Notes under the pieces: generated by a model
The model's database searches: none
Told to the model about the DNA's origin: nothing
The model's input: the letters and a program-made list of their open reading frames with translations, nothing else
Shown here: one piece after another, positions 6,592 through 32,630 of the stretch
How the letters are laid out: the number at the start of each line of letters is the position of its first letter
How positions within the stretch are numbered: the first letter of the stretch is position 1
Assembly: GCA_964564255.1 (NCBI GenBank)
Contig: CAZMAZ010000004.1
Span: 1 to 32,630, forward strand
Length of the DNA stretch: 32,630 nt
From: an uncultured Clostridium sp.
GTDB lineage: Bacteria; Bacillota; Clostridia; Oscillospirales; CAG-272
Direction: 5' to 3'
Program-made: the position numbers and the translations under genes

Positions 6592-7761
6592 TCACCCTTT
6601 CACGACCGCTAACGGTCTTAGTTTTACGAGAATTTCAACGAGATCTTTCTGCTCTTCCATTACAACGTCGATATCTTTGTATGCTCCGGGAGCTTCGTCA
6701 AGATCGTTGATGCTGGAAATACTATGAACAATTCCTTTACTTTCCATTTCTTCCTGAACCTTGGAAAGTTCGAAAGTTTGCTTCGCTTTCATCCGGGACA
6801 TCTTTCTTCCTGCGCCATGCGAGCAGGAGCAGAGGGACGCTTCATTCCCTTTACCCTTGACAATGTATGAGAACGAACCTTGTGACCCTGGAATAATCCC
6901 GAGAACTCCTTCTCTGGCAAGAGTAGCCCCTTTACGGTGAACAATTACATCTTTGCTGTAGTGATGCTCAAACGCGGCGTAATTATGATGAATTGAAATT
7001 CCGTGGAATGGTACCATTTCCGGAATATGTTTTTGGATAGCGCATTTTACAGAGTGGGCTATCTCTGACCTATTCTGTTCCGCAAAGGCAAGGCAAAGAT
7101 TCATTTCTGCCCAATATTGTTCGAATAATTCTTCCCCTCTGGGGATGAACGCAAGATCATTTTTTACAATATCGTTGTAATACCAACGTTTGCAAAGTTC
7201 TCTTGCTTTTTCAATATAAAAATCTGCAACTTTCTTTCCGAGATTTCGAGAACCTGAATGAATCATAAACCAAACGTGACCGTCGTCCCCGTATTGGATT
7301 TCAATGAAATGATTTCCTCCACCAAGAGTCCCTAATTGGAGTCGAGCATGATCTAACTCATCAAAGCAAATTGGAGCAGATGCCGATCCTTCTTCGTACC
7401 AATGAACTTGATCAAAGAATTCCGTTTCAACAGGTTCTTTATGCCAAGTCTGACCAAGTGGAACTTTCGAGTGAATTGTTCCAACAATCTTTTCTAAAAC
7501 AGAACGTTCTGGAATTTCTGTCAAATTGGTTTTTACTGCCAGCATACCGCAGCCGATATCTACACCGATCGCATTTGGGCAAACGGCGTTTTCTAAAGCA
7601 ATTACACCACCAATCGGCATACCGTACCCTTCATGTGTATCAGGCATCAAACAAACATTTCCGATGAGACAAGGAAGTTGAGAAAGGTTTCGAGCTTGTT
7701 CAATCGCTCCCGGTTCCGGACTCATGCACCAAGACAAGATTCTATCGCCATATTTAATCAT
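6592..7761 (-). CDS. rtcB: RtcB 3'-phosphate/5'-hydroxyl RNA ligase
   Basis: Hallmark motifs are MPDTHEGYGMPIGG, GCGM, GGGNHFIE, HSGSRNLG, HHNYA, HRKGAT and CSHGAGR. The start is probably ATG 7761 with AAGGA 9 nt upstream. The track ORF extends to TTG 7779. Confidence 0.9.
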   Translation of the reverse strand: MIKYGDRILSWCMSPEPGAIEQARNLSQLPCLIGNVCLMPDTHEGYGMPIGGVIALENAVCPNAIGVDIGCGMLAVKTNLTEIPERSVLEKIVGTIHSKVPLGQTWHKEPVETEFFDQVHWYEEGSASAPICFDELDHARLQLGTLGGGNHFIEIQYGDDGHVWFMIHSGSRNLGKKVADFYIEKARELCKRWYYNDIVKNDLAFIPRGEELFEQYWAEMNLCLAFAEQNRSEIAHSVKCAIQKHIPEMVPFHGISIHHNYAAFEHHYSKDVIVHRKGATLAREGVLGIIPGSQGSFSYIVKGKGNEASLCSCSHGAGRKMSRMKAKQTFELSKVQEEMESKGIVHSISSINDLDEAPGAYKDIDVVMEEQKDLVEILVKLRPLAVVKG

Positions 7762-7784
7762 GATCAGTATTCCTTTCAAGATTC

Positions 7785-8407: not shown

Positions 8408-8866
8408 CTATGGCTTGATTTTATATTCCTCTACCTTGAAATCCCCACAAGTTTCACACTTAAATTCAATCGTAACAACATAATGAGAAACGCTTCCAAA
8501 GAATTTGACTCGTGTTTTCTCCCGATTCGTTTCCACCCATTTATGTTGATGGAGAAATTTGTTCAGAATTTTTTCAAGTAGCGTTTCTTGAATTCCTGAC
8601 TCTCTTAAATATTCTTTACTAGAACTGCCTACCGCGTGAAGGTAGGCAGCAATGTCGCCAAGTCTCAAATCTTCATCTTCTCCATGCTCAATATAGTAAA
8701 TGCGCTTCAAAGGAATACCAGATTTTTCGGCAACTTGTTTTTGAGTCAAACCCGACTTTGCTCTCTTTCCTATCATATACGAAACAAGGTGACAACATTT
8801 ATCTTTGAATTCTTTTTGAAGTTTCGAATCATTCACTAACTTAAGAAGTTGTTTTTTAATTACCAT
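8408..8866 (-). CDS. XRE-family helix-turn-helix protein with a C-terminal extension
   Basis: GLTQKQVAEKSGIPLKRIYYIEHGE is a typical HTH_3 (Cro/C1) motif. The start overlaps the stop of the upstream ATPase gene (8860-8866). It ends in TAG. Confidence 0.7.
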   Translation of the reverse strand: MVIKKQLLKLVNDSKLQKEFKDKCCHLVSYMIGKRAKSGLTQKQVAEKSGIPLKRIYYIEHGEDEDLRLGDIAAYLHAVGSSSKEYLRESGIQETLLEKILNKFLHQHKWVETNREKTRVKFFGSVSHYVVTIEFKCETCGDFKVEEYKIKP

Positions 8867-9723
8867 TCATCATCCCCTCTTGTTAATTCAAATTGTTCTA
8901 TTTCATAAGATTCCAAAATCTTAAAAAATCCGTGTTTAACAAAGAACTCACTTTCTTTCAGAAGTTGTTTCTTGTTTCGCTCCATTTCTTTGATCGCTGC
9001 TTTTTCTGCAATCTCTTTCTTGCGATATTCTTTCGCGCGAGAACAAGAATCAATTACATTCCCAACAGCTTTTCCCAGATAACAAGCTGTATTGGAATTT
9101 GCAACTTTGAATTTTACCCGATATCGAACATTTTTCTCAAAATGGTCTACGACCTTCAATTTCTTTCGAGTCTTCTGAGAACGAAGAAAATTCCTTGTCT
9201 TCATCCAACGTTTGTGTTCGATGGAAAGAATTTCCGGAACCATCTCCATCATAGTTTGAGAATGAATCGCGGCAATAATCTGGCATCCATTTTCGAGCAT
9301 TTTTTGGAAAATTTCAAAAAGACGATAACATGAACGAATACTTAACGCCTGATCTGGCTCATCAAAAATAAAAAGAGTGTTCTTGAGTTCGGCAAAACCG
9401 TTAACAAAAGTGTTCATATTCGTTTCACCATGAGACATGTAGCGAGAAAAAATGGAAAAGAAAGATACTCTACTTTTATCATTAAGTGTTCTGGGATTGT
9501 CTTTTTCAAAATCAACAAACAAGAAACGTTCAAGTCCAGATTCATCCACAATATATTTCAAATGGCAATCATGCTTTTGAATGGCTTCTTTTAGCTCCTG
9601 TAGGAGCGTTGTTTTCCCCGATCCATTATCTCCTACGATAAACGTTAAAGGACGGATAGAATACGTTTCTCCTGTCCTAAAGAGCTTTCGTATAGGTTTT
9701 TCAATTTTAATTTCTGTGATCAT
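8860..9723 (-). CDS. small ABC-type (AAA_21-like) ATPase, stand-alone
   Basis: Walker A is GDNGSGKTTLL, the signature-like motif is MSHGE, Walker B is LFIFDEPDQALS and the H-loop is AAIHSQ. A basic C-terminal tail of about 90 aa follows. Confidence 0.75.
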   Translation of the reverse strand: MITEIKIEKPIRKLFRTGETYSIRPLTFIVGDNGSGKTTLLQELKEAIQKHDCHLKYIVDESGLERFLFVDFEKDNPRTLNDKSRVSFFSIFSRYMSHGETNMNTFVNGFAELKNTLFIFDEPDQALSIRSCYRLFEIFQKMLENGCQIIAAIHSQTMMEMVPEILSIEHKRWMKTRNFLRSQKTRKKLKVVDHFEKNVRYRVKFKVANSNTACYLGKAVGNVIDSCSRAKEYRKKEIAEKAAIKEMERNKKQLLKESEFFVKHGFFKILESYEIEQFELTRGDDEW

Positions 9724-13432: not shown

Positions 13433-13654
13433 TCACCTACATCTTTCTATATTTTCTGGAATTGTTTCTGTATCATCAAGCAAGCGGCACTGAGTTGCTC
13501 CACATTCAATTCTCGTTAAAAGCGGTTCCTGTTGACGTTCACTGGAATTGTTTGCCCGATAAGAACTTCCAAATGTCGCCATGTTATAACTTGTCTGGAG
13601 ATTTTGTTCGGACATTTTTCCTTGATAAAAATCGTATAAAGACGTACCCTTCAT
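13433..13654 (-). CDS. hypothetical small protein (73 aa) in the structural block
   Basis: It has an ATGA overlap with the stop of the 895-aa gene and ends 3 nt before the next start. Confidence 0.5.
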   Translation of the reverse strand: MKGTSLYDFYQGKMSEQNLQTSYNMATFGSSYRANNSSERQQEPLLTRIECGATQCRLLDDTETIPENIERCR

Positions 13655-16338
13655 ACTGCAGCTCCCACCTCAAATTGTGCAACAGAGAGCTGAGTGATCC
13701 ATTCTTTCTGTTGAAGGTTGATTGAATGGTTTATTCCTGTTATGTAGAAAATGATTGATCCGACTTTTATCTTGTCAAAAATGTGGAACCCATACCAACC
13801 AGGAACAGTGATTGTACCAGTGAAAATCAAAGATTGTCCAAACCGAACATTTGTCTTATGAAACTTCTCTAAGTCTTTTATTGTTACTAGCCCCGGTTCA
13901 GAAGTTGTTATAATTCTACTCCAAGGATAATCACCTACGCCAATATCTGCTTGAGTAAACTTCATTCCAGGCATTTCTCCATCAGGAACGAGTTGAGTGG
14001 ACTCGGTGTCATTTTTAACAAGCAGACCGAGGGTTAAGAAGGTATTATATCTATTTTCAAGATAAGGTGCAATGTCCATCGAAATAATGTTGCTCTCTTT
14101 GTAAGTTCTGACAATAGGTCCGTTTTTAACCCACGTTGGACAGCCATATTCATCCATGTAGTAGAAATACCCGCACCCGTCTGGTTGAATTATGAACTGG
14201 TGATTAATTTTCTTTGCGATCTCTTTCAAAGCATCTAAAACTGGAGTTCCAAGTACAAAATTTGTAGAAGGAGCTTGCCAGTCCCAAGACCTTGGAAGAA
14301 TTATGTTCGACACTGCCCCTGCACCGGAGGAGAAATCAGGAACGTATTTTAACTTGCAACCGGAATAGGACACCATATAATTCAAAACACCATCCATTCC
14401 ATTTTCAAAAACTTGATCTCCATCCCAGAAAGGACAGTTCACGAGTTTCATGTCGGACAATTTCTTTTGAATTCCTACAAGTTTTACAGTAAGTTGAGAA
14501 CTACCTTCACTTACTTGGTCTTGGATTTCCATTGCGTATCCTTTGAAGATTTGACCATAGTCGGTTTCATAATGAGAATCAGAGGTTGTTGGTGTGACTT
14601 CATTCAAATCGTAAAAACCGTTTTTGGCAACAAGGGTCAAAGCTCCGATGGCTTGAGTTGGGGCGTCTGATATGTCCATCATCATATATTTATCGAGAGT
14701 AAGGGTGCCGGATGTTCCGTCCAAACCGTGAGCAATGCTTATGTTGGTTATATAGTCTTCCCATTTAGTTCCGGAAGTCTCTGTGCCACGGTAAACAGAG
14801 AGTTTGTTGTTTACATTTGTTTGGAAATCCTTAGAAAAGTTGCCGTCACCATTCAGGACATCTGTTAGCCTTCCAGTATACTTTGTAACATGAATTATCC
14901 CGAACAATTCAAAAGCGTTTAGTTGTAATTCAGAATCATCAGCCCTGAATTCAAAATCCACACGAAAGATAGAAGTTTGAGTATCTTCGTCATAGTGAAC
15001 TTTTTTGGATTTGTATTTCTTACTCAAGCCACTGTATCCGAAATTCTTTCCACCAACTTCAAGGCAGTAATAATCCTCCATACCACCATTTTCAGAAACA
15101 TTGGTATCTGTTTGCTGCCCAGACATTTTGAAAAAGTAAGAAAAAGAGACAACAGGACAGAACCTTAATGCTGCAAAAGCAAAGTTTCCTATACAGTTAT
15201 TGAACGTTGCCTGAACTCTGTTTCCAAAGTTCACGTAAACATTCTTTGAGGTCAACTTAATGTTGTCAGCATTACCTTTTTTGTGCTCAGCAGGAAAACA
15301 GTTTAATGCTGGTTCTGTCTCGTTCAGAATGTCAAGGTCTTTATTTTTTTTACAAATCAGGTTCTTTGAAGTCTGTTTCGGATTTGTTACCAAATCTCCA
15401 GTAACGATCAAACTATTCATCAAAGAATAGAAGAAGATTACATTCTTATTTAACAAATCGTTCGAGTTGACGTGAAGAATTTTTTGCCCCATCTGGCTGA
15501 AATTCAGAGGCCCGGAAACGGTGTTATCTTTATTGATACTTACTGAAACTTCTCCCGTAGGATTGGCTCTCAGCTCAACATAGTCTCCGTTCGTAGAGTT
15601 GAAAGAATTACTACTGCTTTCAGTGTAGAACTTGAATGAAGCATAGCAAGGATTCTTTCCGGTTTCATCGTCTTCCCAGGAAGTGAAATCTAACAATAAG
15701 GCGAACACTCCAGTAGGATTGAAATTACTGACAAAGGTTCTATTGAAAGATTCCTTGTCCATATAGGGATTTTTCCCGAGGATAGAGATATAGTCAGCAG
15801 TCAAAGTATTTGCTACGTCATATTTTACTCCGTAATTTTTCAAAGTATCGACCGCTTTTTTCCATTCTTCCGAAGCATCAGTTTTAGCTTTCGGTTTAAG
15901 CGGAGACCACAGATAATACTTCCATTCGGTAGCAACTGCGTAATCTTCAACTGAAGCGTCAAACTTCAATTCGTTTCTTCCGAAGTCCCAAGGATAAATG
16001 ATTTGGGGAATCAATGTTCCGTTAGGTGTAATGAAACCAGAATCTTTTTTCCCCGCTTCATTCATGTCTACGTAGACATTGCTGTAATTCTTTTCGGAAA
16101 ACTTTTCTACAACACTCTTGACGTTCTGAAAACAGATCATACTGTTTGCGTTCTTCGGAAAAAACTTCAAAGCGTCTTCACCCTTCTTGGGATCGAAATC
16201 ATCCGGCAAAGTCACAACAGGTATACCAGAGAAATTAATATGTTCAAAAGCATATCTTTTTCCATTAACAACCTGTGGCGTCAATACAGACCCAGTTTCA
16301 ATATATAAAGGAGTTGGAGCGTTGTTATCGTAAGCCAT
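13651..16338 (-). CDS. large (895 aa) virion structural protein candidate (tail, baseplate or receptor-binding type)
   Basis: It is the longest ORF in the window, with an Asn/Thr/Ser/Gly/Tyr-rich composition typical of tail or baseplate proteins. I recognised no catalytic motif. Confidence 0.65.
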   Translation of the reverse strand: MAYDNNAPTPLYIETGSVLTPQVVNGKRYAFEHINFSGIPVVTLPDDFDPKKGEDALKFFPKNANSMICFQNVKSVVEKFSEKNYSNVYVDMNEAGKKDSGFITPNGTLIPQIIYPWDFGRNELKFDASVEDYAVATEWKYYLWSPLKPKAKTDASEEWKKAVDTLKNYGVKYDVANTLTADYISILGKNPYMDKESFNRTFVSNFNPTGVFALLLDFTSWEDDETGKNPCYASFKFYTESSSNSFNSTNGDYVELRANPTGEVSVSINKDNTVSGPLNFSQMGQKILHVNSNDLLNKNVIFFYSLMNSLIVTGDLVTNPKQTSKNLICKKNKDLDILNETEPALNCFPAEHKKGNADNIKLTSKNVYVNFGNRVQATFNNCIGNFAFAALRFCPVVSFSYFFKMSGQQTDTNVSENGGMEDYYCLEVGGKNFGYSGLSKKYKSKKVHYDEDTQTSIFRVDFEFRADDSELQLNAFELFGIIHVTKYTGRLTDVLNGDGNFSKDFQTNVNNKLSVYRGTETSGTKWEDYITNISIAHGLDGTSGTLTLDKYMMMDISDAPTQAIGALTLVAKNGFYDLNEVTPTTSDSHYETDYGQIFKGYAMEIQDQVSEGSSQLTVKLVGIQKKLSDMKLVNCPFWDGDQVFENGMDGVLNYMVSYSGCKLKYVPDFSSGAGAVSNIILPRSWDWQAPSTNFVLGTPVLDALKEIAKKINHQFIIQPDGCGYFYYMDEYGCPTWVKNGPIVRTYKESNIISMDIAPYLENRYNTFLTLGLLVKNDTESTQLVPDGEMPGMKFTQADIGVGDYPWSRIITTSEPGLVTIKDLEKFHKTNVRFGQSLIFTGTITVPGWYGFHIFDKIKVGSIIFYITGINHSINLQQKEWITQLSVAQFEVGAAV

Positions 16339-16581: not shown

Positions 16582-17136
16582 TTACAAGGAACGAATTTGC
16601 TCGGAGATTTCTTTCGCGTCAACATTCACGGAGTCGAATGCACGGCAATCATACAATCCAAGTTCCCGGTGTTTTCGAAAAGCGACTTGTGCTCCTTCTA
16701 CCCGATCAACGATTCCAGCTTGACTGATTTTCTTTCCGCCATTCCGGAAAAGGACTCTTGAAACAGAGGTGAAAGCATTTGTATATAGCAAACACACTTT
16801 CACGTCACGTTTGTGGGCGAATTCCATTTCCATCAGGAACTTTGCGACATTTCCGTAAATTCCGGAAATCAGGATTCCTTCAAGGTAAATATCATAATCT
16901 GGATACTCTTTAGAGAGATGGTCGGCAAGATTGTAGACCAAGAAAGTAGACTTGATTCCGTCGCAACCGCCGCAAGCGTTGTCGTACTTTCCAAGTGCGA
17001 TTACCTTTCGTTCTCTGGAAACGGTGTACTTTCCAAACGGGTGGTCGAGAACCTCAAATTCTGGACCGATGATACCTCTCATCACAGTTGATTTTCCAGA
17101 GCCGTTTGCTCCGATAATCAAAGTTAGTTTAGGCAT
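16582..17136 (-). CDS. P-loop NTPase or kinase-like protein (184 aa)
   Basis: Walker A is LIIGANGSGKST and a Walker-B-like DIYLEG is present. There is an unusual ACGGCDG segment. The start overlaps the end of the upstream small ORF. Confidence 0.65.
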   Translation of the reverse strand: MPKLTLIIGANGSGKSTVMRGIIGPEFEVLDHPFGKYTVSRERKVIALGKYDNACGGCDGIKSTFLVYNLADHLSKEYPDYDIYLEGILISGIYGNVAKFLMEMEFAHKRDVKVCLLYTNAFTSVSRVLFRNGGKKISQAGIVDRVEGAQVAFRKHRELGLYDCRAFDSVNVDAKEISEQIRSL

Positions 17137-17362
17137 GATTCAGATCCTCGAAGTTGTAGGCGATTTCTTTGATTTCGGAAAGACCGAGAAATTTCTTGAC
17201 CGCTTCGGTTTGTTCATCGGTGAATTGAATCACCACCCGATTTCTGGATGGATGATACTCCTTAAGGTAATAATCCGGGATATTGTCCTTGGAAAGACCC
17301 TCTTCCGGCATCATTTTATCCTCGGCAAAAAGCGATTGAGTCTGATAATCTTCTTTCTTCAT
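17129..17362 (-). CDS. hypothetical small acidic protein (77 aa)
   Basis: It has an ATGA overlap with the radical-SAM gene stop and an 8-nt overlap with the downstream P-loop gene. Confidence 0.55.
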   Translation of the reverse strand: MKKEDYQTQSLFAEDKMMPEEGLSKDNIPDYYLKEYHPSRNRVVIQFTDEQTEAVKKFLGLSEIKEIAYNFEDLNHA

Positions 17363-19830
17363 TTTCCTACCCCTTCAAAGAAATTTCCTCTGTCAATATA
17401 TTTGTATACGATGTCCCCATTTTCATCTTTGACGATGTTTTTGTTTTCGTCATACATAGGGACAAGGGAGCCACGAAAGATACGATAAGGAGAATTTCCC
17501 TTTTTCGGACTGTTCCAAAGATACCGCATGTGTTCTTCCATTGTCATACCGAAAAAATTTGCACGATTCTTAGTGGAGTTCGTGTTCAATCCTTCTCCGT
17601 TGACATACGGGAACCCGGAGTAAATCGTATGGATATCTTTTGAAATATCAGAGTAATGGACAACGCCATTCTTCTTGGCAATACAGATCGCATTGGTCAT
17701 CTGTCCTCTGGAATAGTTCCAATCCTCGGAAAGACCGCAACAACAACCATTATGGCAAGCATCCTTGAAGTCCATATCGGAAACGTAAAACCGGAGTCCG
17801 GTCTCGTTGCAAGTTTCCAACATTCTCTTTACGAAAGGTGCTTTGACTTTGCGGTTTAAACGCAAGTATCCGGAGCCAATGGAATAGCGGCGATAAAACT
17901 TCACAATATCAAATCCGGCAAGTTCAGAGATTGTTTCAAACTTTTTGATCGCCGGGAGATTTCGAGTTTCAACACAGAAAAATTCTGTAGAAACGGCGGT
18001 TGCTCCTGCTTTTGCGCAGTCCTTGATAAGATCAACGTAACCGAGATTGGAAATACCGATAATGAAAGGACGGAGTCTCAAAGTTGCTCCACCAGCGTTC
18101 AGGTTGGCATATTTCTCGATTGCGGCAATTCTCTTTTGAGGAGAATCAACTCCGGCTTCGATAATACGGGCATGATCTTCACGATTGGTAATGATGGAGA
18201 ACTTACAATTCCACTTCTTGTTGCCTTTAAACAGCTCAGTATACCGAGGATCATCCAACCACCAAGTTGCTTTCGTAGAGAAGCAAAGCGGATAATCGAT
18301 TTCTCGGAAGAACTTCAAAAGTTCCAACGTCACACCGTAACGACGTTCAAATTCATCAAACTGGTCAGAAAGACCACCCCACTGCATAACTTTGCGAGCC
18401 TTGATATAATCGCCGAACTGCGAGTCATCCGGTTCGAGGAACATACGCTTGATTTTCTCAACATTGACGGCGTGAACTTCTTTACGGAGATATTTCTCTT
18501 TTGCGTTACCCAGACCTCTCTGAAATTGGGAGAAGCAGTTGTGACTCACCATTCCATTAGCAATGAAGTTTTCTGTTGATGTAGTAATGTCGTACATTTT
18601 CTGGAAACGTGCAAGACTTTCAATAGAAACGATTTTGTTCCCTTGAGGGGTTGGTTCTTTGATTGAAATTCCTTCGATATTGCATTTCGCCAAATCCATT
18701 CCGGTAAGATTCTGGAAGCGAATTTTTTCTTTCATTCCACCGAAATAGACGATCTTCTGATCCCCGTCATCCGCATGATACTTGTGTTGGAATCCTAATT
18801 TGTCCAAGCAGAAGCAAAAGTCATCGAGCATCTTCTGATCGGTATTTCCGAAACGACAAGATTCAATAGTTGTTTCTCCTTCCACATCGTAAGCACCTGC
18901 AAGGAATCCTTTGTAAAAATCCTCGTTGTCCTGCCACTTGATAATTCTCTTAATGGAATAGTAATCATTAGCATTTTGCGCTCTGATTGCCCTGGTTTTG
19001 ATTTCTTCTTTCGTTTTTCGATCAATCATCGGAAAATCGAATTCTTTCGCAAATATGCCAAAACGTTCAAGATAACGTTTTGCTTTCATTACGGCAGAGG
19101 TCAATTTCATAGCCAGGCGGAAACGATAGCACAGTCCATCGTTAGTCTGATATTCCGCAAGATTTCCATCTCCACGAATGATGCCGTTCAGATATCCGGA
19201 CATGTAAGCATCATTTTCAACATACCCCTTTTGAGTGTCGATTTTGAAACTTACAATACTGTTTTGGGTCGTCAAACGAGTTTCACCGATAGTACGTTTC
19301 GGCAAAAAGGTTTTCTTCCAACCTCTTTCCGTATACCAACGGTGTTCGGAAGAACAGATCGCATAACGACCATCAGCAAGCGTAACTTTGAACGCTTCTT
19401 TTTCTTCCGTGATCCATTTATTCAGAACAACGGACTTTTTGATTTTCGGGAAAGTATTGAATTGAATATCGACTCCAACAATTTCATCTCCAATTTCGAG
19501 ATCTTTAATCGCTTTGGTAGAATGATCCCACATAGTAATCTGGGTGTCTCCATCAAGGCAATACAAGCATCCATAATAACAGTTGCTGTAGGTGTCAAAA
19601 GTCATAGGCATCGAGCAGTCCGGATACTCCGCTGTCCAACGAGGAGAAGAATAGTCATGAACAATGACTGACCCGTCTTTTTGAGCAGATATAACCGGGG
19701 CGACATCGGTCTCATCTTCGGAAATGTTAATGTCCTCTTCGATCACGGCCTCATCTTCTGGATTGGTAAGGGACTCCAACTCCTGAATTCTTTTTTCATT
19801 TTCTTCCAACATTATTTTCTGTCCTTTCAC
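17359..19830 (-). CDS. radical-SAM enzyme (SplB / DNA-photolyase-like family) containing an intein
   Basis: The N-extein ends ...TYSNCYYGCLY and the C-extein begins CFSQFQRGLGN.... The joined sequence gives the CxxxCxxC [4Fe-4S]/SAM motif. The exteins total 482 aa and the intein is 341 aa. Confidence 0.8.
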   Translation of the reverse strand: MKGQKIMLEENEKRIQELESLTNPEDEAVIEEDINISEDETDVAPVISAQKDGSVIVHDYSSPRWTAEYPDCSMPMTFDTYSNCYYGCLYCLDGDTQITMWDHSTKAIKDLEIGDEIVGVDIQFNTFPKIKKSVVLNKWITEEKEAFKVTLADGRYAICSSEHRWYTERGWKKTFLPKRTIGETRLTTQNSIVSFKIDTQKGYVENDAYMSGYLNGIIRGDGNLAEYQTNDGLCYRFRLAMKLTSAVMKAKRYLERFGIFAKEFDFPMIDRKTKEEIKTRAIRAQNANDYYSIKRIIKWQDNEDFYKGFLAGAYDVEGETTIESCRFGNTDQKMLDDFCFCLDKLGFQHKYHADDGDQKIVYFGGMKEKIRFQNLTGMDLAKCNIEGISIKEPTPQGNKIVSIESLARFQKMYDITTSTENFIANGMVSHNCFSQFQRGLGNAKEKYLRKEVHAVNVEKIKRMFLEPDDSQFGDYIKARKVMQWGGLSDQFDEFERRYGVTLELLKFFREIDYPLCFSTKATWWLDDPRYTELFKGNKKWNCKFSIITNREDHARIIEAGVDSPQKRIAAIEKYANLNAGGATLRLRPFIIGISNLGYVDLIKDCAKAGATAVSTEFFCVETRNLPAIKKFETISELAGFDIVKFYRRYSIGSGYLRLNRKVKAPFVKRMLETCNETGLRFYVSDMDFKDACHNGCCCGLSEDWNYSRGQMTNAICIAKKNGVVHYSDISKDIHTIYSGFPYVNGEGLNTNSTKNRANFFGMTMEEHMRYLWNSPKKGNSPYRIFRGSLVPMYDENKNIVKDENGDIVYKYIDRGNFFEGVGK
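18538..19560 (-). mobile_element. intein with a LAGLIDADG homing-endonuclease domain (residues 91-431 of the host protein)
   Basis: It starts CLDGDTQITM (TGC at 19560-19558). Block B is AICSSEH. The two LAGLIDADG motifs are YLNGIIRGDGN and FLAGAYDVEGE. It ends NFIANGMVSHN (AAC at 18540-18538), followed by Cys+1 (TGC at 18537-18535). Confidence 0.85.
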
Positions 19831-19835
19831 AGTTA

Positions 19836-20249
19836 TTAAAAGAATCTGTTTTGACTCATCAAATCTTTGAAATTGTAACCGTCATTCTTGATGTAATGGG
19901 GAAGATTAAACATCTCCATTACGTTTTTGACATCTTTCGGCTCGAACAGAACGATGATATAATCTGGATTTTCGTTGATGTATTCAGTGTTCTGAGCGTT
20001 CTTTTTATCTCGAAGCTCTTCATAATAGAAAGTGTTTTTCTTTCGGCGCAGGAAGTTGTATCCGATGAATTCGTTAAGCAGTTTAGACTCACCTGCACCG
20101 TATTTGATAACAGCATATTGATACATACGTTCAGCTTCGATATTGATGGTCGGTAAGTCATCAGGTTCCAAGTCGATTTCCCGAAGTTCTTTTGGTAGAA
20201 ATGGAAACTCCGTAAATTCTGTCATTTTGAATTGATCAAACAAATCCAT
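19836..20249 (-). CDS. hypothetical protein (137 aa)
   Basis: ORF-track entry, 5 nt upstream of the radical-SAM gene start. Confidence 0.6.
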   Translation of the reverse strand: MDLFDQFKMTEFTEFPFLPKELREIDLEPDDLPTINIEAERMYQYAVIKYGAGESKLLNEFIGYNFLRRKKNTFYYEELRDKKNAQNTEYINENPDYIIVLFEPKDVKNVMEMFNLPHYIKNDGYNFKDLMSQNRFF

Positions 20250-20319
20250 ACAAATTACCTCTTTTAGTTTTAACTGTGCTACGACAGTTATGAAGCGATT
20301 ATCAATTCAAAGTAGATTT

Positions 20320-20730
20320 TCAATATTCGTAATCGCTGAAACGGTAGTCCTCGTCGTCATAATCCGATTTTTCACGGTCTCTTTCGAAGTCGAATTCTTC
20401 TTTGATTTTCTCTTCCAAAGTCTCCAAGTTGACGCAAGAAAGTTTTTCAATATCGATTTCTCTGAAGATATCTTTCATTGAAATTGAGCCGTTTTTGTTC
20501 TTAACGATGTTTCCGTTTTGGTCTTTCTTTGGAAAACTCTTGAGAACTTCAATGCCGGTAATTACAACATCTTCGATATAATCTGTACCAGCATCGTAAC
20601 ATTTTGCTCCCCAGTATTCGTAAGGACCTATTCCGTCGTTTCCAATAGTGTAATCAAATTCAATCGCCAGTTCGTGCTCGTGGTTATTCGTTGATTCAAT
20701 ATAAAGATGGATGTTTGCCATGAAAATCAC
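20320..20730 (-). CDS. hypothetical acidic protein (136 aa)
   Basis: ORF-track entry with a highly acidic C-terminus (DYDDEDYRFSDYEY). Confidence 0.6.
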   Translation of the reverse strand: MIFMANIHLYIESTNNHEHELAIEFDYTIGNDGIGPYEYWGAKCYDAGTDYIEDVVITGIEVLKSFPKKDQNGNIVKNKNGSISMKDIFREIDIEKLSCVNLETLEEKIKEEFDFERDREKSDYDDEDYRFSDYEY

Positions 20731-25403: not shown

Positions 25404-25495
25404 CAATCCATCGAAAAATATTTCCACATCATATATTGATATGAGAAGCAAAGAAAAATTCTCGAAGGAGAGAAAGTCAGAAAGGAATGTATCAC

Positions 25496-26638
25496 ATGAA
25501 ATGGTGGGATCGGTCGTGGAATCCAATCAGTGGTTGCTCGGAGTGTAGCGAAGGTTGTAGAAATTGTGTGGCTTTGCAAAATCTTGTGAAGCAAGGGCGG
25601 TCGTTGAAACCGTCGTTCAATGAAAAAGCGTTTCAGAATAATCTCCGCAGTAACATGAATTACATGGTTTGTTCGCTTGGGGATATTTTCCATCCCGATA
25701 ATTCTTGCGAGAATATTGATGCTATTTTTTCAAAGATGGCAAAGAGAAACACAAACCGTTATTTCGTGTTAACGAAATATGCTTCAGAAATGTTTGAGTA
25801 CTTCAATGATGAGCAACTCCCAGAAGATATCAAGGGAAATGATTGGAAACATCTCTGGGTAGGAGTTTCTGTTGAAAGCGAAAAATATCTCGATAGAATC
25901 GAGAGTCTCATAGATTCTCCTGTGATAAATCACCGTTTTATCTGTCTCGAGCCATTACTTGAGGAAATCAGCATTTCGGAGTATCTCTCTTCCGGGAAGA
26001 TTGAATGGGTGGTAATCGGTGCAGAGACCGGAAAACAAGCGAGAAAAGCTGATCCTGAATGGTTTCGGAAGATTATTTCTGAGTGCCGTCAGTTCAATGT
26101 TCCGGTCTACCTTGATCAGATTGAAGTTGACGGGGAAGTAAAGACAGAAATTGACGATTTCCCGGAAGAATTTCAAATCCGTGAATATCCTTGGATCAGG
26201 GAAGAATTGAATGAATATCACAAAAATTACGTTTTGAGCGGAGTAGGATTTGTTGGTTCAAAGAGAGAACACGGCAAACTTGAATTCTTGATAAAGGCTC
26301 CGGAATACGTTTACAGATACTGGGTAGAGAATTTTGAGTGGACGGGGTGTAAGCAGGAAATTCGTCCAATTTCATTTGCTCCCCAATCTAATGCTTCTTT
26401 CAAAAAGATTTTTCAAGAAATTCATTCTTGCCTCATTAAAGCAATGAACAATCTTGAAGATCGGGGAGCGTCAAAGACTCAGATCGATAAGTTGATGACA
26501 AACGACGTCATGGTTCAGTTTAAGTGGATTCCTCGCGATTTCAATCCCGATAAAATCCCCGAGAACAATGAGAACAAAGACATCAACGTATATTTGAAAA
26601 CCGTAAAACAAATCTTTCAGAAGGAGTATAACCAATGA
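25496..26638 (+). CDS. phage Gp37/Gp68 (DUF5131)-family protein with a C-terminal extension of about 140 aa
   Basis: The N-terminus MKWWDRSWNPISGCSECSEGCRNCVA matches the family hallmark WNPxxGC...GCxxC. The start is probably ATG 25496 with AAAGGA upstream. The stop overlaps the clamp-loader start (ATGA). Confidence 0.7.
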   Translation: MKWWDRSWNPISGCSECSEGCRNCVALQNLVKQGRSLKPSFNEKAFQNNLRSNMNYMVCSLGDIFHPDNSCENIDAIFSKMAKRNTNRYFVLTKYASEMFEYFNDEQLPEDIKGNDWKHLWVGVSVESEKYLDRIESLIDSPVINHRFICLEPLLEEISISEYLSSGKIEWVVIGAETGKQARKADPEWFRKIISECRQFNVPVYLDQIEVDGEVKTEIDDFPEEFQIREYPWIREELNEYHKNYVLSGVGFVGSKREHGKLEFLIKAPEYVYRYWVENFEWTGCKQEIRPISFAPQSNASFKKIFQEIHSCLIKAMNNLEDRGASKTQIDKLMTNDVMVQFKWIPRDFNPDKIPENNENKDINVYLKTVKQIFQKEYNQ

Positions 26639-28779: not shown

Positions 28780-29720
28780 TGCCTTATATACCTACTGGGT
28801 GTAGGTTCGGATTCCTTACCGATACCCATTTTTCTGTAGTCCGAAATGATTTCAGGACAGATTGCTTTTTTGAAAGTGTCATATCAAAATTTTCGCAGTG
28901 TTATGACTATTTCAATTCTTCAGGCTGTGAATTCATTATTCACGGCGGTGACATGTTCGACAAGTATCGTTCATATTTTCATCCTATGCTTTTGCGTGTC
29001 CGTGAGACTATCGTAAAAAGCAAGATCCCTACATATTTCATTTGGGGGCAGCACGATCTTCTTGGTTATAACCGGGAGAGCTCCAAGAATTCTAATCTTG
29101 AGTTCCTTAAAGAAATCTGCGATGGGAAACTAATTGAAATAACTAATCACATTGAAACTGGTTCGGTTTATTTGTATGCTTCCCATGTAGACCAGAATCC
29201 GGCAGAAGTCCTCCAGGGCATCAATAAACGAATCCTGAAGCCAACGGTTGCTATAGTACACGCTCTGCTTCATAATGCAACAAGCAATTTTGGAACAATA
29301 GATATTTGTTCATTTGGGAAAGTGAAGCCAGTTCTTGTCCTTTCTGGGGATCTTCATTGCGGATTTGATTATACAAAAATAAATGACACAGTGTTTTACA
29401 ATCCTGGATCATTAGCAAGAACAGAGCGTACAGAAAGAAAGCCGAAGTGCGCAATAATTACTCTTCAACCGTGGATGACGGACTGGATGATCGATATTGA
29501 AGAGTTCTTCCCCCGTTGCGAAGATTATCCGTTCCCGAAGGAAGAAACACCAGAAGTCAAAGTCTCTGACCAACAAGACTCAGAAGAATATATTGAAGCC
29601 TTTGAGAAGTTTAAATCCGAAACAAAAGATATTATCGAACGTCTCGAAAAGGTTGGGGAACATCATAAGATAGATAAAGAAGTTTTAGAATACATTAAAT
29701 CCAAAAGGGGAACAAAGTAA
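28779..29720 (+). CDS. calcineurin-like metallophosphoesterase, Mre11/SbcD-like nuclease
   Basis: The motifs appear in the canonical order for the phosphoesterase family: LTDTHF (DxH), HGGDMFD (GDxxD), WGQHDL (GNHD-like), IVHAL and SGDLHCG. Confidence 0.75.
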   Translation: MPYIPTGCRFGFLTDTHFSVVRNDFRTDCFFESVISKFSQCYDYFNSSGCEFIIHGGDMFDKYRSYFHPMLLRVRETIVKSKIPTYFIWGQHDLLGYNRESSKNSNLEFLKEICDGKLIEITNHIETGSVYLYASHVDQNPAEVLQGINKRILKPTVAIVHALLHNATSNFGTIDICSFGKVKPVLVLSGDLHCGFDYTKINDTVFYNPGSLARTERTERKPKCAIITLQPWMTDWMIDIEEFFPRCEDYPFPKEETPEVKVSDQQDSEEYIEAFEKFKSETKDIIERLEKVGEHHKIDKEVLEYIKSKRGTK

Positions 29721-32630
29721 TGGCGACAGCGTTTGTTGATTTATTACACCGTGATGAGTTCTCATTGAAACAGGCTCTCGGAAATACGAAAAAGATTTTA
29801 CCGATACTCAAGGAAAGAAATCATAGTCATTATGCTGTAGCGAACTACTGTGAGATTTCAAATTGGGTTCAACAGCTTTTTACTTGCAAGAAAGCCGGGA
29901 TTATCCCGATACTTGGAATGGAAGCATTCGTGAATAATTATCGTTGTCGCGTTGAAGCTCCAGGACAAGTATCCGTAAAAAACCTTGTTTCCGGAGAAGA
30001 AAAATCGGTATACGATCTTGATGAAACGAGCCGGGACTTGACGACCTTGGATTATCCGATAGACCTTTTCGCGTTGACGGTTGAAGGGTATTATAACATT
30101 ATCAAAATCCATAATGATTCGCAACTGTTCGGTGTCGATAAAAGACCGAGGACTTCAGACCCTTACCTTAAGGAACACGGAAAAGGAATTGTCGCGGTAA
30201 TGCCCACTCCGTTTAGCGAAGTGTCTTCTCTTGTTTTCAACGGAATGAGAAAAGAAGCGTTTGAAAAATTCAAATTCTATTCTGAAATTTTTGATCAGGT
30301 ATATCTCGCTGTTACGCTGGTAGAGGATCGGGAATACAAAGAAATCAACGATGGAATCATCTCTTTCGCAAGAGAGAATGGAATTAAAATCGTTCCGGTA
30401 TGCAATTCGCATTACATAAATCCAAGTGACGAAGAAGCGTTTCTTACGCTGCGAAAATTGTCCAGGCTCCGTGGAGGTATGTCTTACGAAATCGACGTGT
30501 GTCCCGGAATGTATTATCGTTCCAGAGAAGACGTGGATCTCCTTTTCAAAAAATTGAAGACGGATATTTTCACGGAAGAAGTCTATGCTGTAGCCATGAA
30601 GAATCTTGACGAGTTGCTTGCACAATTCAAAGAGTTGGAAATTGATACAACGATTAAACTTCCGAAATTTGAAAATGGTCCAGAGAATCTCAGAAAAAAA
30701 GCATGGAAAGGATTCCTTGAAAGAGGTTACGATCAAAAGGGACAAATCTATCTTGACCGTTTCAATTATGAGATGGAAAATATTGTTGGAGCAGGTTTTG
30801 CCGATTACTTCCTTGTCCTTGAGGAAATGTTCAACTGGTATCGCAATGATTTGAATTCTATTTCAGCATTCGGAAGAGGTTCTGCTGCAGGTTCTCTTGT
30901 TCTGAATTGTATTGGTTGTACAAACATGGATCCGATAGAACACCACCTGCTTTTCGAACGATTTCTTGATGCTGAGAGATTCGCTAACATTGTTAAAGCT
31001 GGTGGGCAAGTGTCTGGAGGAGATTGCCCGGACGTCGATAGTGACTTTGCGACAAACAAAAAAGAAATGGTTAAAGATCATTTCATTGAAGTTTACGGTG
31101 AAAAATGTACAGCGTCAATCGGGACTTGTGGTTTGATGAAGACGAAATCCGTGCTTAAAGACCTTGCGAGACTTTATGAAGTCCCTATGGAAGAGATCAA
31201 TTCTGTTACCGCAGGTGAAATGGCAGGGTATTTTGACGATGATGAAAACCCGATGCCACTAGAAAAACTCAAGAAGGAATTTCCAGGTCTCGAAAAGTTA
31301 CTGAACAAATATCCTCAAATGGGAAATACGTTTGAGAAGCTCCGAGGTTCGATCACGAACTGGGGGAAACATGCCGGAGGTGTTCTTATAACTGACTTTG
31401 ACCTTACGGAACAACTTCCACTCCGTAGGGATCCGGAAGGAAAATTGGTAACTTGTTGGCAGGAGGGTATTGCTTCCCGTGAACTCGGGATGATGGGATT
31501 TATCAAGTTTGATATTCTGGCTATAGACCAACTGAATATCTTTGAAGATACGGTTCGATTAATTAAAGAAACAACCGGGAAAGAAATTGATGTCAATAAA
31601 ATTCCTATAGATGATTACAAAGCATTAAAACTTCTGGACGAGCATGACGGTGTTTGTGTTTTTCAATTCGATACCGATTTGTCGGGTAGAGTAATTGACC
31701 ACATGAAAGGTATCAAGAAGTTTGAAGACCTGGGATCGCTTAGCACATTGATGAGACCCGCAGCTCTCGCAAATCGTTTTGACAGTGAGTTTGGAAAAAG
31801 AAGAACAAATAGTTCTGGAGTCTATGTTCCAGATTGTTTGAAGCCTTATCTTGCCGAAACTTTTGGGCTTCCGATTTACCAAGAGCATATTATGCAAGCA
31901 GGAATGTATATGGCTGGATTTGATAAAAATACTGCTTACAAGTTTATGAAACTTCTCTATAAAGGAAAAATGACAAAAGACATTGTCCCTGAATGGAGAG
32001 AAAAATTTTTGAACGGTTGTAAAGAAAAAGTTGAATCCGGCGAGGTGAAGTCAGGATATCCAGAAGAAATGTTTGAACAGCTTCTTGCTTTTCAGGGCTA
32101 CGGATTCTGTGCAGCTCACGCAAAAAGTTACAGCATGTATTCTGCCGTAGGATTGTGGTTCAAAGCCTACTATCCGCTTCAATATATGTGTGCAAATCTT
32201 TCCGTAACGGAACGTTCATCTGCTAGACTTGCTCAAAGGGTGAGGTATTGCCAGGCAAAGGGGTTTAAGATTTATCCTCCGGATGTTCGATATGCCGGTC
32301 ATAAATGGACGATTCACGAGGGTGGACTCATGGCTCCGCTCGGAAATATTAAAGGATTTGGTGTTAATGACGTTGAAAACGTTGTCCGGAATCGCCCCTA
32401 CAAGTCGGCAACAGATTTCATGGACAAGACCAAACTCGGGAAATCGAAGTTCGAGTCTCTTTGTATGAGTGGAGCATTGGAATGCTTTGGGGAGCGAGAA
32501 TACCTCTACAACTGGTATACTGAATTCTATGCAAAGAAGTCAAAGACTAAAAAAACGCAGCGAATGGAATTGTTCTTTGAAGATTTTGAACAAGAAGATA
32601 TTTTCGACATCAAGAAAACGTTTTCCAAAG
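29720..32630 (+). CDS. dnaE: DNA polymerase III alpha subunit (DnaE-type), 3' partial (continues past the window end)
   Basis: The ATG overlaps the previous TAA (TAATG). I checked the frame as open through about 30900 and read it through to the window end. Motifs are GRGSAAGSLV, CPDVDSDF (catalytic Asp pair), KHAGGV, IKFDILA, YQEHIMQ and GYGFCAAHAKSY. It is absent from the ORF track because it has no stop in the window. Confidence 0.9.
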   Translation, partial: MATAFVDLLHRDEFSLKQALGNTKKILPILKERNHSHYAVANYCEISNWVQQLFTCKKAGIIPILGMEAFVNNYRCRVEAPGQVSVKNLVSGEEKSVYDLDETSRDLTTLDYPIDLFALTVEGYYNIIKIHNDSQLFGVDKRPRTSDPYLKEHGKGIVAVMPTPFSEVSSLVFNGMRKEAFEKFKFYSEIFDQVYLAVTLVEDREYKEINDGIISFARENGIKIVPVCNSHYINPSDEEAFLTLRKLSRLRGGMSYEIDVCPGMYYRSREDVDLLFKKLKTDIFTEEVYAVAMKNLDELLAQFKELEIDTTIKLPKFENGPENLRKKAWKGFLERGYDQKGQIYLDRFNYEMENIVGAGFADYFLVLEEMFNWYRNDLNSISAFGRGSAAGSLVLNCIGCTNMDPIEHHLLFERFLDAERFANIVKAGGQVSGGDCPDVDSDFATNKKEMVKDHFIEVYGEKCTASIGTCGLMKTKSVLKDLARLYEVPMEEINSVTAGEMAGYFDDDENPMPLEKLKKEFPGLEKLLNKYPQMGNTFEKLRGSITNWGKHAGGVLITDFDLTEQLPLRRDPEGKLVTCWQEGIASRELGMMGFIKFDILAIDQLNIFEDTVRLIKETTGKEIDVNKIPIDDYKALKLLDEHDGVCVFQFDTDLSGRVIDHMKGIKKFEDLGSLSTLMRPAALANRFDSEFGKRRTNSSGVYVPDCLKPYLAETFGLPIYQEHIMQAGMYMAGFDKNTAYKFMKLLYKGKMTKDIVPEWREKFLNGCKEKVESGEVKSGYPEEMFEQLLAFQGYGFCAAHAKSYSMYSAVGLWFKAYYPLQYMCANLSVTERSSARLAQRVRYCQAKGFKIYPPDVRYAGHKWTIHEGGLMAPLGNIKGFGVNDVENVVRNRPYKSATDFMDKTKLGKSKFESLCMSGALECFGEREYLYNWYTEFYAKKSKTKKTQRMELFFEDFEQEDIFDIKKTFSK

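Follow-up and report, generated by a model that had tools for sequence, protein, structure and literature searches.

Why does a gene for a radical S-adenosylmethionine (radical-SAM) enzyme carry an in-frame insert of 341 codons exactly in front of the codon for the third cysteine of its cluster motif, and how could its product still become an enzyme? This question is raised by a gene on the window analyzed here, the whole stretch of 32,630 nucleotides of contig CAZMAZ010000004.1 (assembly GCA_964564255.1) from an uncultured Clostridium sp. An earlier reading of the letters alone, without database searches (hereafter the sequence-only reading), had proposed that this gene encodes a phage radical-SAM enzyme interrupted by an intein with a LAGLIDADG endonuclease. 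Judged from the sequence, and with a probability that we put at about 0.8, the insert is a genuine class-1 intein that is probably active and whose double-motif LAGLIDADG endonuclease is intact, a selfish element belonging to a clade that targets the third cysteine of CxxxCxxC motifs.

The insert splits a cluster motif that homologues keep intact

The gene starts with a GTG codon located 5 nt past the upstream stop, and its 823 codons are free of stops and frameshifts; an alternative in-frame ATG lies six codons into the open reading frame (ORF), and its use would shift the residue numbers, not the DNA coordinates. The boundaries proposed for the insert proved to be exact (Table 1), and all the motifs quoted from it, AICSSEH, YLNGIIRGDGN, FLAGAYDVEGE and a terminal HN followed by Cys, were found. 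The flanks read ...TYSNC84YYGC88LY90 before the insert and C432FSQFQRG behind it, and excision of the 341 residues in silico yields a 482-residue protein with C84-x3-C88-x2-C91. The CxxxCxxC of the window protein therefore exists solely after excision, because the intein splits it. By calculation, the spliced protein weighs 55.5 kDa, the intein 39.3 kDa and the precursor 95 kDa, in agreement with the products of about 55 and 39 kDa that had been expected.

Using the spliced 482-residue sequence as a query, we found 2263 homologues. The best 120 of these (409-636 residues, up to 85% identity) all contain an uninterrupted C-x3-C-x2-C, mostly CS[FY]GC[LMI]YC, and none of them contains the insert. 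When the precursor was aligned with 11 homologues by MAFFT, one gap of 341 columns appeared in all 11, between ...GC(L, I or M)Y and CF(S or A)Q. The uninterrupted motif at this place in the aligned homologues confirms that the junction lies directly before the third cysteine. Both observations that could have spoken against the sequence-only reading are lacking: the alignment puts the junction on the cluster motif, and the segment is retained as a conserved, non-excised domain in none of the homologues.

The closest extein homologue, P0001, is encoded on a metagenomic contig of 200,931 bp (locus L001) that has the same gene order as the window: an ORF of 134 codons, the radical-SAM gene, an ORF of 76 codons and a kinase gene. 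In a blastn comparison, L001 470-1137 corresponds to window 20251-19559 and L001 1136-3037 to window 18537-16634. Because the match joins window position 19559 to 18537, it follows that the stretch missing in L001 is exactly the 1023-bp intein. The empty site reads ...GGATGTATATAT/TGTTTTTCTCAA... (here and below, a slash marks the junction), and the L001 site is a candidate target of the endonuclease, ...GGATGTATATAT/TGTTTTTCTCAATTC..., comprising about 40 bp centered on GGATGTATATAT/TGTTTTTCTC. The window exteins are 85% identical to the intein-free homologue, with all the invariant columns intact.

Extein relatives were also found at 307 viral loci in IMG/VR, the best 80 of which align over about 1.2 kb without interruption. 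The intein allele is thus rare within its own extein family, since it is absent from the 120 best proteins as well as from the 80 best viral loci. Among 50,697 GenBank phages, neither a megablast search with window 17000-20500 nor a tblastn search with the spliced extein gave a match.

One residue near the junction deviates from the family. Y85 (window 19576-19578), the neighbor of the first cluster cysteine on its C-terminal side (CYYGC), is replaced by Ser or Ala in 120/120 intein-free homologues; it may be a scar of co-conversion, an adaptation to the intein, or due to chance. Co-conversion of the extein on the C side is unsupported, as the first 26 residues behind C432 match those of P0001 without exception, which leaves Y85 on the N side as the sole oddity.

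The insert has the anatomy and the predicted fold of a homing intein

The excised 341 residues score above the cut-offs of hidden Markov models for both an intein and a homing endonuclease, namely Pfam Intein_splicing (PF14890; 39.9 bits, cut-off 35.8) and LAGLIDADG_3 (PF14528; 38.8 bits, cut-off 22.5), and they also match NCBIfam NF038136 in its intein part (profile positions 76-334) at E = 1.4e-35. We aligned the insert with five complete relatives at 35-43% identity, and in this six-member clade alignment Cys1, Asp5/Thr6, His73, Asp131-Gly, Glu227-Gly, Tyr323-Asp324 and His340-Asn341 are invariant. Block B of the insert is S70-S-E-H73, Ser at that position being usual within the clade, and both acids of the endonuclease are kept (YLNGIIRGD131G and FLAGAYDVE227G). 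A profile of the clade, when searched against the sequences in the PDB, matches the gp41-1 intein, I-DmoI, PI-PfuI and DnaB inteins.

These similarities extend to the predicted structure. The AlphaFold2 model of the intein has a predicted local distance difference test (pLDDT) score of 86.1, and Foldseek aligns it with TliVMA, PI-PfuI and PI-SceI, the E values being 4e-13 to 4e-12. The central domain of the model has the alpha-beta-beta-alpha-beta-beta-alpha fold of I-DmoI, on which it was superimposed by Foldseek with a template modeling (TM) score, normalized to the target, of 0.72-0.75 and a root mean square deviation of about 3.3 A. No extra DNA-recognition region was evident in the window intein, for which no dedicated search was made.

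Judged by its sequence, the insert has what defines a class-1 intein: Cys1, SxxH, the Asp/His-Asn/Cys+1 set, a HINT match and a removal that restores the motif. The profile scores and the single clean alignment gap place it far beyond chance as an intein. That it is a LAGLIDADG intein, as the sequence-only reading had recognized from its motifs, is upheld by the Pfam scores, the intein part of NF038136, the invariant residues, the matches in the PDB and the predicted fold.

Two other explanations can be weighed against these data. The first is that the segment is a permanent accessory domain of the protein, or that the DNA insert is an intron or a free-standing endonuclease gene that is removed from the RNA. 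This possibility is next to negligible: the segment is absent from 120/120 homologues and from all of the 80 best viral loci, it is bounded by Cys1 and HN/Cys+1, it is in frame, without a stop and without need of a start codon or ribosome-binding site of its own, and its predicted model has the HINT fold. An Rfam scan of the whole window revealed no intron or other RNA family, and such an element was therefore ruled out. The second explanation is that the intein has decayed and no longer splices, in which case the radical-SAM gene would in effect be a pseudogene or encode a non-functional fusion. Nothing specific favors decay; block B has a Ser where the textbook motif has a Thr, but SxxH is the norm in the clade. 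We consider it highly unlikely, because the 823 codons are open, none of the catalytic residues invariant in the clade has been lost, and the exteins are still 85% identical to an intein-free homologue with their invariant columns intact.

A clade of inteins resides at CxxxCxx/C of radical-SAM enzymes

The sequence-only reading had implied that the arrangement is rare. This was overrated: the same clade of inteins occupies the same site in hundreds of radical-SAM genes. With the window intein alone as a query, we found 14 relatives that are 31-42% identical, in which every intact N-junction is CxxxCxx/C and every C-junction is HN/C followed by Phe or Tyr; one of them is a mini-intein. Their exteins are unrelated (Rv2578c-type, DUF5131 and others). 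A search with the six-sequence profile against 1.84 billion cluster representatives gave 9297 matches at E <= 1e-3 and 589 at E <= 1e-30. Among the top matches, CxxxCxx stands right before Cys1 in 82 of the 90 with a complete N-junction, and HN/C is present in 51/53. After splicing, the hosts of the clade have various Pfam architectures: B12-binding plus Radical_SAM, DUF5131 (once with a ParB_N fusion), SPL (PF20903), and Radical_SAM plus Fer4_12.

A scan of genomes, with one genome per species, gave at least 539 loci, and the 80 that were kept for inspection all have CxxxCxx/C...HN/C. These loci are mostly from Actinomycetota (Micromonospora, Solirubrobacterales, Microbacterium), and some are from Blastocatellia, Proteobacteria and one contig of a Prevotella metagenome-assembled genome. 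Full-length members of the clade also interrupt other phage radical-SAM genes, on six IMG/VR viral contigs. The intein occupies the same site in P0367, which bears the NCBI name 'intein-containing Rv2578c family radical SAM protein' and reads CSHACVY/CVAGDT...VVSHN/CFARN.

The DNA at the insertion sites has little in common across the families beyond TGY-N9-TGY-NNN-TAY/TGY-TWY, which is imposed by the motif; it is our conjecture that this imposed likeness is how one lineage of endonucleases reaches paralogous families. One clade member, P0166, is located one cysteine earlier, before the second Cys of the motif (GCPYR/C...ISHN/CNFC), and the clade has thus shifted register at least once. The window itself encodes a DUF5131 protein of 383 residues (25487-26638, + strand; PF07505, E = 8e-42) with an N-terminal CSECSEGCRNC and without an intein. 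The same intein clade is found in DUF5131 genes elsewhere (P0129 and P0153), and the P0129 intein opens with the identical CLDGDTQITM.

The host protein resembles spore photoproduct lyase in its predicted fold

In an alignment with 59 homologues, the spliced motif C84YYGC88LYC falls on three invariant Cys columns. A search of the joined 482-residue extein against radical-SAM models had been suggested in the sequence-only reading. Matches to NCBIfam PA0069 (E = 1.1e-10, below its cut-off) and to the Rv2578c radical-SAM model (NF038135; 24 bits, cut-off 430) were sub-threshold, and Pfam Radical_SAM (PF04055) gave no match on the spliced protein at E <= 1. Many close homologues do have a precomputed PF04055 match, and several are labeled 'DNA repair photolyase' by the Joint Genome Institute (JGI).

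The profile of the extein gave noise only when searched against the PDB sequences, and the likeness to spore photoproduct lyase (SPL) was seen solely at the level of the fold. The AlphaFold2 model of the extein, built from the 59 homologues, has a pLDDT of 84.6, with an acidic low-confidence part at residues 21-44 and a conserved core from about residue 60 in the N-extein. SPL is its top fold match in the PDB (E = 5.9e-9, TM target 0.59), followed in order by MgmA, SuiB, PFL-AE (PFL-activase) and viperin. The family models, the labels of the homologues, the SPL-like fold and the viral loci together bear out the proposal of a phage radical-SAM host enzyme that is of the SplB/COG1533 type. Hence, the gene should be annotated as encoding an intein-containing SPL-like radical-SAM protein with a mature product of 482 residues, and not as encoding a hypothetical protein of 823 residues.

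A cysteine-rich motif near the C-terminus, CHNGCCCG (extein residues 351-357, in the region of window 17650-17680), is conserved in the extein family, with N353, G354, C356 and C357 invariant. Judging from its sequence, it could contribute a ligand of an auxiliary cluster, or a catalytic cysteine that donates a hydrogen, as in SPL.

The genomic context suggests a probable role in DNA hypermodification

The radical-SAM gene is located two genes upstream of a gene for a kinase of the 5-hydroxymethyldeoxyuridine (5-hmdU) DNA kinase family, with an ORF of 77 codons in between, and the arrangement is the same in L001. The window kinase is 26% identical to gp54 of phage M6 (E = 3e-6), and one homologue of the extein, P0018, is a fusion of a radical-SAM domain with PF18748. 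Phage M6 encodes an SPL-like radical-SAM protein, gp53, beside the kinase gp54, and gp53 isomerizes N-alpha-glycinylthymidine in DNA (PMC8989533). By analogy with M6 gp53/gp54, the host is most likely a radical-SAM enzyme that acts on modified phage DNA, in thymidine hypermodification.

Functionally, the gene is only weakly linked to thymidine hypermodification, and several results count against the link. A tblastn search with the window kinase found it at 2 of the 80 best viral loci. In an hhalign comparison, the extein family matches M6 gp53 with a probability of 50% (E = 1.6e-4, 178 columns including the cluster motif). No amino acid:DNA transferase (aGPT-Pplase/ADDT) was found in the window. 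A pyridoxal phosphate-dependent decarboxylase and a dUMP hydroxymethylase were likewise not found in the window, and in the tblastn search with the spliced extein no match was obtained in the phage collection at 1e-5. At more distant viral relatives, the genes conserved nearby encode another P-loop kinase and a protein that PF18724 (amino acid:DNA transferase) matches weakly (E = 7e-4), neither of which was detected in the window.

A gene for a TET-associated glycosyltransferase (PF20691, E = 4e-44) is located at L001 9823-10665, just past the region that is syntenic with the end of the window. From its sequence, it suggests a phage lineage with glycosylated or otherwise hypermodified DNA bases.

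How the intein may have arrived and how it would leave the protein

The reading that the insert is a selfish homing intein has an observed basis, which consists of the sequence anatomy, the absence of the insert from homologues, the predicted folds and the site-specificity of the clade. From this basis we infer splicing, homing and the chemistry of the enzyme. The endonuclease would have cut an intein-less allele at the conserved DNA of the motif, and repair of the break would have copied the element in. In the precursor, Cys1 would attack the Y90-C91 peptide bond in an N-S acyl shift, after which the N-extein would move to C432 (Cys+1) by trans-thioesterification. Cyclization of Asn431 (Asn341 of the intein) and an S-N shift would then join Y90 to C432. 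This would make C432 the third residue after C88 and restore the C-x3-C-x2-C for a [4Fe-4S] cluster, and the 95-kDa precursor would thereby give rise to the 55.5-kDa enzyme and the 39.3-kDa free intein. The precursor should be inactive as an enzyme, because its third ligand is 341 residues off and a domain of 39 kDa sits in the active-site loop. The mature enzyme, which would be co-transcribed with the 5-hmdU-DNA-kinase-like protein, would act on phage DNA. The intein would thus be a selfish element settled at a residue with which the host cannot dispense; gating by redox state or metal through Cys-3, Cys1 and Cys+1, if there is any, might come as a by-product.

A few points weigh against this reading. 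Splicing and endonuclease activity are predicted rather than experimental. Recent homing is deduced solely from the existence of close relatives without the intein; the nearest intein found is 42% identical, and no donor was identified. Also, the intein has a GC content of 0.40, near the values for the exteins (0.43-0.44) and for the window (0.39), which gives no compositional sign of a foreign origin; hence, foreign composition was dropped as evidence of origin.

Could the intein be a redox or Fe-S switch?

The sequence-only reading had proposed that splicing and assembly of the Fe-S cluster compete for the same cysteines, so that the enzyme would be conditionally active; by analogy, this is plausible. 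It leads to another explanation, in which the intein is an adaptive post-translational switch that lets the radical-SAM enzyme mature only when reducing conditions allow Fe-S assembly. In the precursor, C84, C88 and Cys1 would form a pseudo-CxxxCxxC, and the first splicing step would be halted by a disulfide between C88 and Cys1 or between Cys1 and Cys+1, or by binding of a metal or cluster.

MoaA is a radical-SAM enzyme that also has a C-terminal CxxC. Reviews report that in the intein of Pyrococcus abyssi MoaA, a native disulfide between the extein Cys-3 and Cys1 stops splicing until conditions are reducing, which they interpret as protection of an oxygen-labile enzyme, and the same pair of cysteines has been used in an engineered redox trap of the Ssp DnaE intein (PMC3922620, PMC10663303). 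The window precursor has this Cys-3/Cys1 pair, as C88-L-Y-C91. The geometry is moreover kept at the 80/80 kept genome loci and in 82/90 of the representatives, across unrelated radical-SAM families. It should be noted that this geometry follows automatically from the insertion site, and it is therefore not independent evidence of selection. In addition, the 120 closest homologues and the best viral loci manage without an intein, and gut or Bacteroidales-type samples are the source of the relatives, whose likely hosts are gut anaerobes with a permanently reducing cytoplasm. The proposal draws on the MoaA precedent and not on any of the computed results. For these reasons, namely the automatic geometry, the intein-free relatives and the likely anaerobic hosts, we rate an adaptive switch, as well as the mechanism outlined for it, as possible but unsupported, and on the whole unlikely.

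A broader version of this idea would be that the whole clade, with its at least 539 genome loci in addition to the phages, persists as a maturation gate that senses redox state or the availability of Fe-S clusters or metals through the pseudo-CxxxCxxC of the precursor and would let go of the oxygen-labile enzyme only once its cluster can be assembled; this we regard as quite improbable. If true, such a gate would, in this phage, tie DNA hypermodification to the physiology of the host. Independently of this, the window gene provides a compact and easily expressed system for asking whether splicing and Fe-S loading interfere, and its intein may serve as a redox-sensitive splicing tool.

Features and neighboring genes of the window

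The coordinates of the precursor, its parts and the two downstream genes are given in Table 1.

Table 1. Positions of the intein-containing radical-SAM gene, its parts and the downstream genes in the window
Feature	Position	Strand	Description	Basis
Precursor ORF	17359..19830	-	Radical-SAM host plus intein, 823 residues and stop codon	Translation
N-extein	19561..19830	-	Residues 1-90
First two cluster cysteines	19561..19581	-	C84-Y-Y-G-C88-L-Y90; relative to the intein, C88 is -3 and Y90 is -1
Intein	18538..19560	-	341 residues (91-431), CLDGDTQITM...NGMVSHN; HINT domain with nested LAGLIDADG endonuclease
Intein block A	19531..19560	-	CLDGDTQITM, Cys1 nucleophile (predicted)
Intein block B	19336..19362	-	AICSSEHRW, SxxH; His73 invariant in the clade alignment
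First LAGLIDADG motif	19162..19194	-	YLNGIIRGDGN, Asp131 invariant
Second LAGLIDADG motif	18874..18906	-	FLAGAYDVEGE, Glu227 invariant
Intein blocks F and G	18538..18597	-	MYDITTSTENFIANGMVSHN; Asp324, His340, Asn341
Cys+1 (C432)	18535..18537	-	Predicted splice nucleophile; third Cys of CxxxCxxC once spliced
C-extein	17362..18537	-	Residues 432-823; most of the SPL-like radical-SAM barrel and the conserved Cys-rich C-terminal region (CHNGCCCG)
ORF of 77 codons	17129..17362	-	Overlaps the radical-SAM stop (ATGA) and the kinase start; ORF of 76 codons at the same place in L001
P-loop protein	16582..17136	-	184 residues, 5-hmdU DNA kinase family, downstream in an operon-like array	PF18748, E = 1.3e-10

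Elsewhere, the window and L001 differ. L001 5383-9572 corresponds to window 29702-32630 (+ strand), a region in which the gene for DnaE (Pol III alpha) is broken in L001 and continuous in the window ('VSGGDCPDVDSDF'), with the junction near window 31017-31030. The first DnaE gene of L001 ends in the N-half of a HINT domain (CFPGETVV..., PF07591, E = 8e-6). It is followed by an ORF of 106 codons with a faint match to a restriction endonuclease-like domain (PF18741, E = 0.0024, below the cut-off), and then by a short IntC-like sequence, '...DIDPIGIVCHN/SDCPD', and a change of frame before the C-terminal part of DnaE. From the sequence, the L001 gene would seem to be fractured and to carry a split intein together with a free-standing endonuclease. 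Related phages would thus carry different inteins in different genes, in view of the radical-SAM intein of the window and the DnaE of L001.

The regions 16634-20251 (radical-SAM/kinase) and 28806-32626 (Metallophos-DnaE) of the window are on opposite strands and about 8.5 kb farther apart than in L001, and therefore an inversion or rearrangement has occurred. Downstream of the kinase, the ORF of 895 codons at 13651-16338 has no counterpart at that position in L001 and no family matches. The window also encodes a full-length RtcB RNA ligase (6592-7779, - strand; PF01139, E = 1e-108), a protein of 287 residues with P-loop/AAA and NACHT-like matches (8860-9723), and a protein with a helix-turn-helix domain (8408-8866). 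RtcB is a common intein host; the window copy is without an intein.

Comparison with known systems

In its architecture, the window intein resembles PI-SceI, PI-PfuI and TliVMA, with a HINT domain and a nested double-LAGLIDADG endonuclease, and in its endonuclease part it also resembles I-DmoI. It differs from the first three in being smaller (341 residues) and in residing in another host protein at another insertion site. The resemblance to P. abyssi MoaA, for which we relied on reviews, is that of an intein in a radical-SAM enzyme with Cys-3 and a catalytic Cys1; the MoaA host is an archaeal enzyme of cofactor biosynthesis, and the host of the window intein is a phage, and probably a DNA-modification, enzyme.

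The host shares a setting with gp53/gp54 of Pseudomonas phage M6: both radical-SAM proteins are SPL-like, have about 480 residues and are encoded just upstream of a P-loop 5-hmdU DNA kinase of about 185 residues. The kinases are homologous, and the CxxxCxxC and the core of the barrel can be aligned between gp53 and the extein. The homology between the two radical-SAM proteins is marginal, and gp53, unlike the window protein, is without an intein.

The closest parallel is the NF038136 family from Actinomycetota and others, which has a homologous intein at the identical insertion point in a host that is likewise of the COG1533 or 'DNA repair photolyase' type. What the window gene has in common with it is the intein and the site: at 123 bits for the window intein and 10 bits for its extein, the whole-protein cut-off of 700 bits is missed. 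The window extein, from a phage gene, is not a member of the Rv2578c family and has about 60 extra N-terminal and about 130 extra C-terminal residues, and the actinobacterial inteins are 31-37% identical to that of the window. Apart from reviews that cite the MoaA redox trap, we found no open paper on a clade of inteins at the radical-SAM motif.

Known already, then, are the class of the intein, the family of its endonuclease, the place of insertion (seen in NF038136 and in hundreds of cases without annotation) and the pairing of Cys-3 with Cys1 (seen in MoaA). The new elements are the phage SPL-like extein family outside NF038135/NF038136, the kinase-linked context and an intein that is at most 42% identical to the nearest one found. 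An intein at a catalytic cysteine will not surprise specialists, and the current understanding of inteins is not overturned. In summary, a probable phage DNA-modification enzyme joins the hosts of an intein clade that is dedicated to one catalytic radical-SAM cysteine, is recognized in the protein-family models of NCBI, and spans several radical-SAM families.

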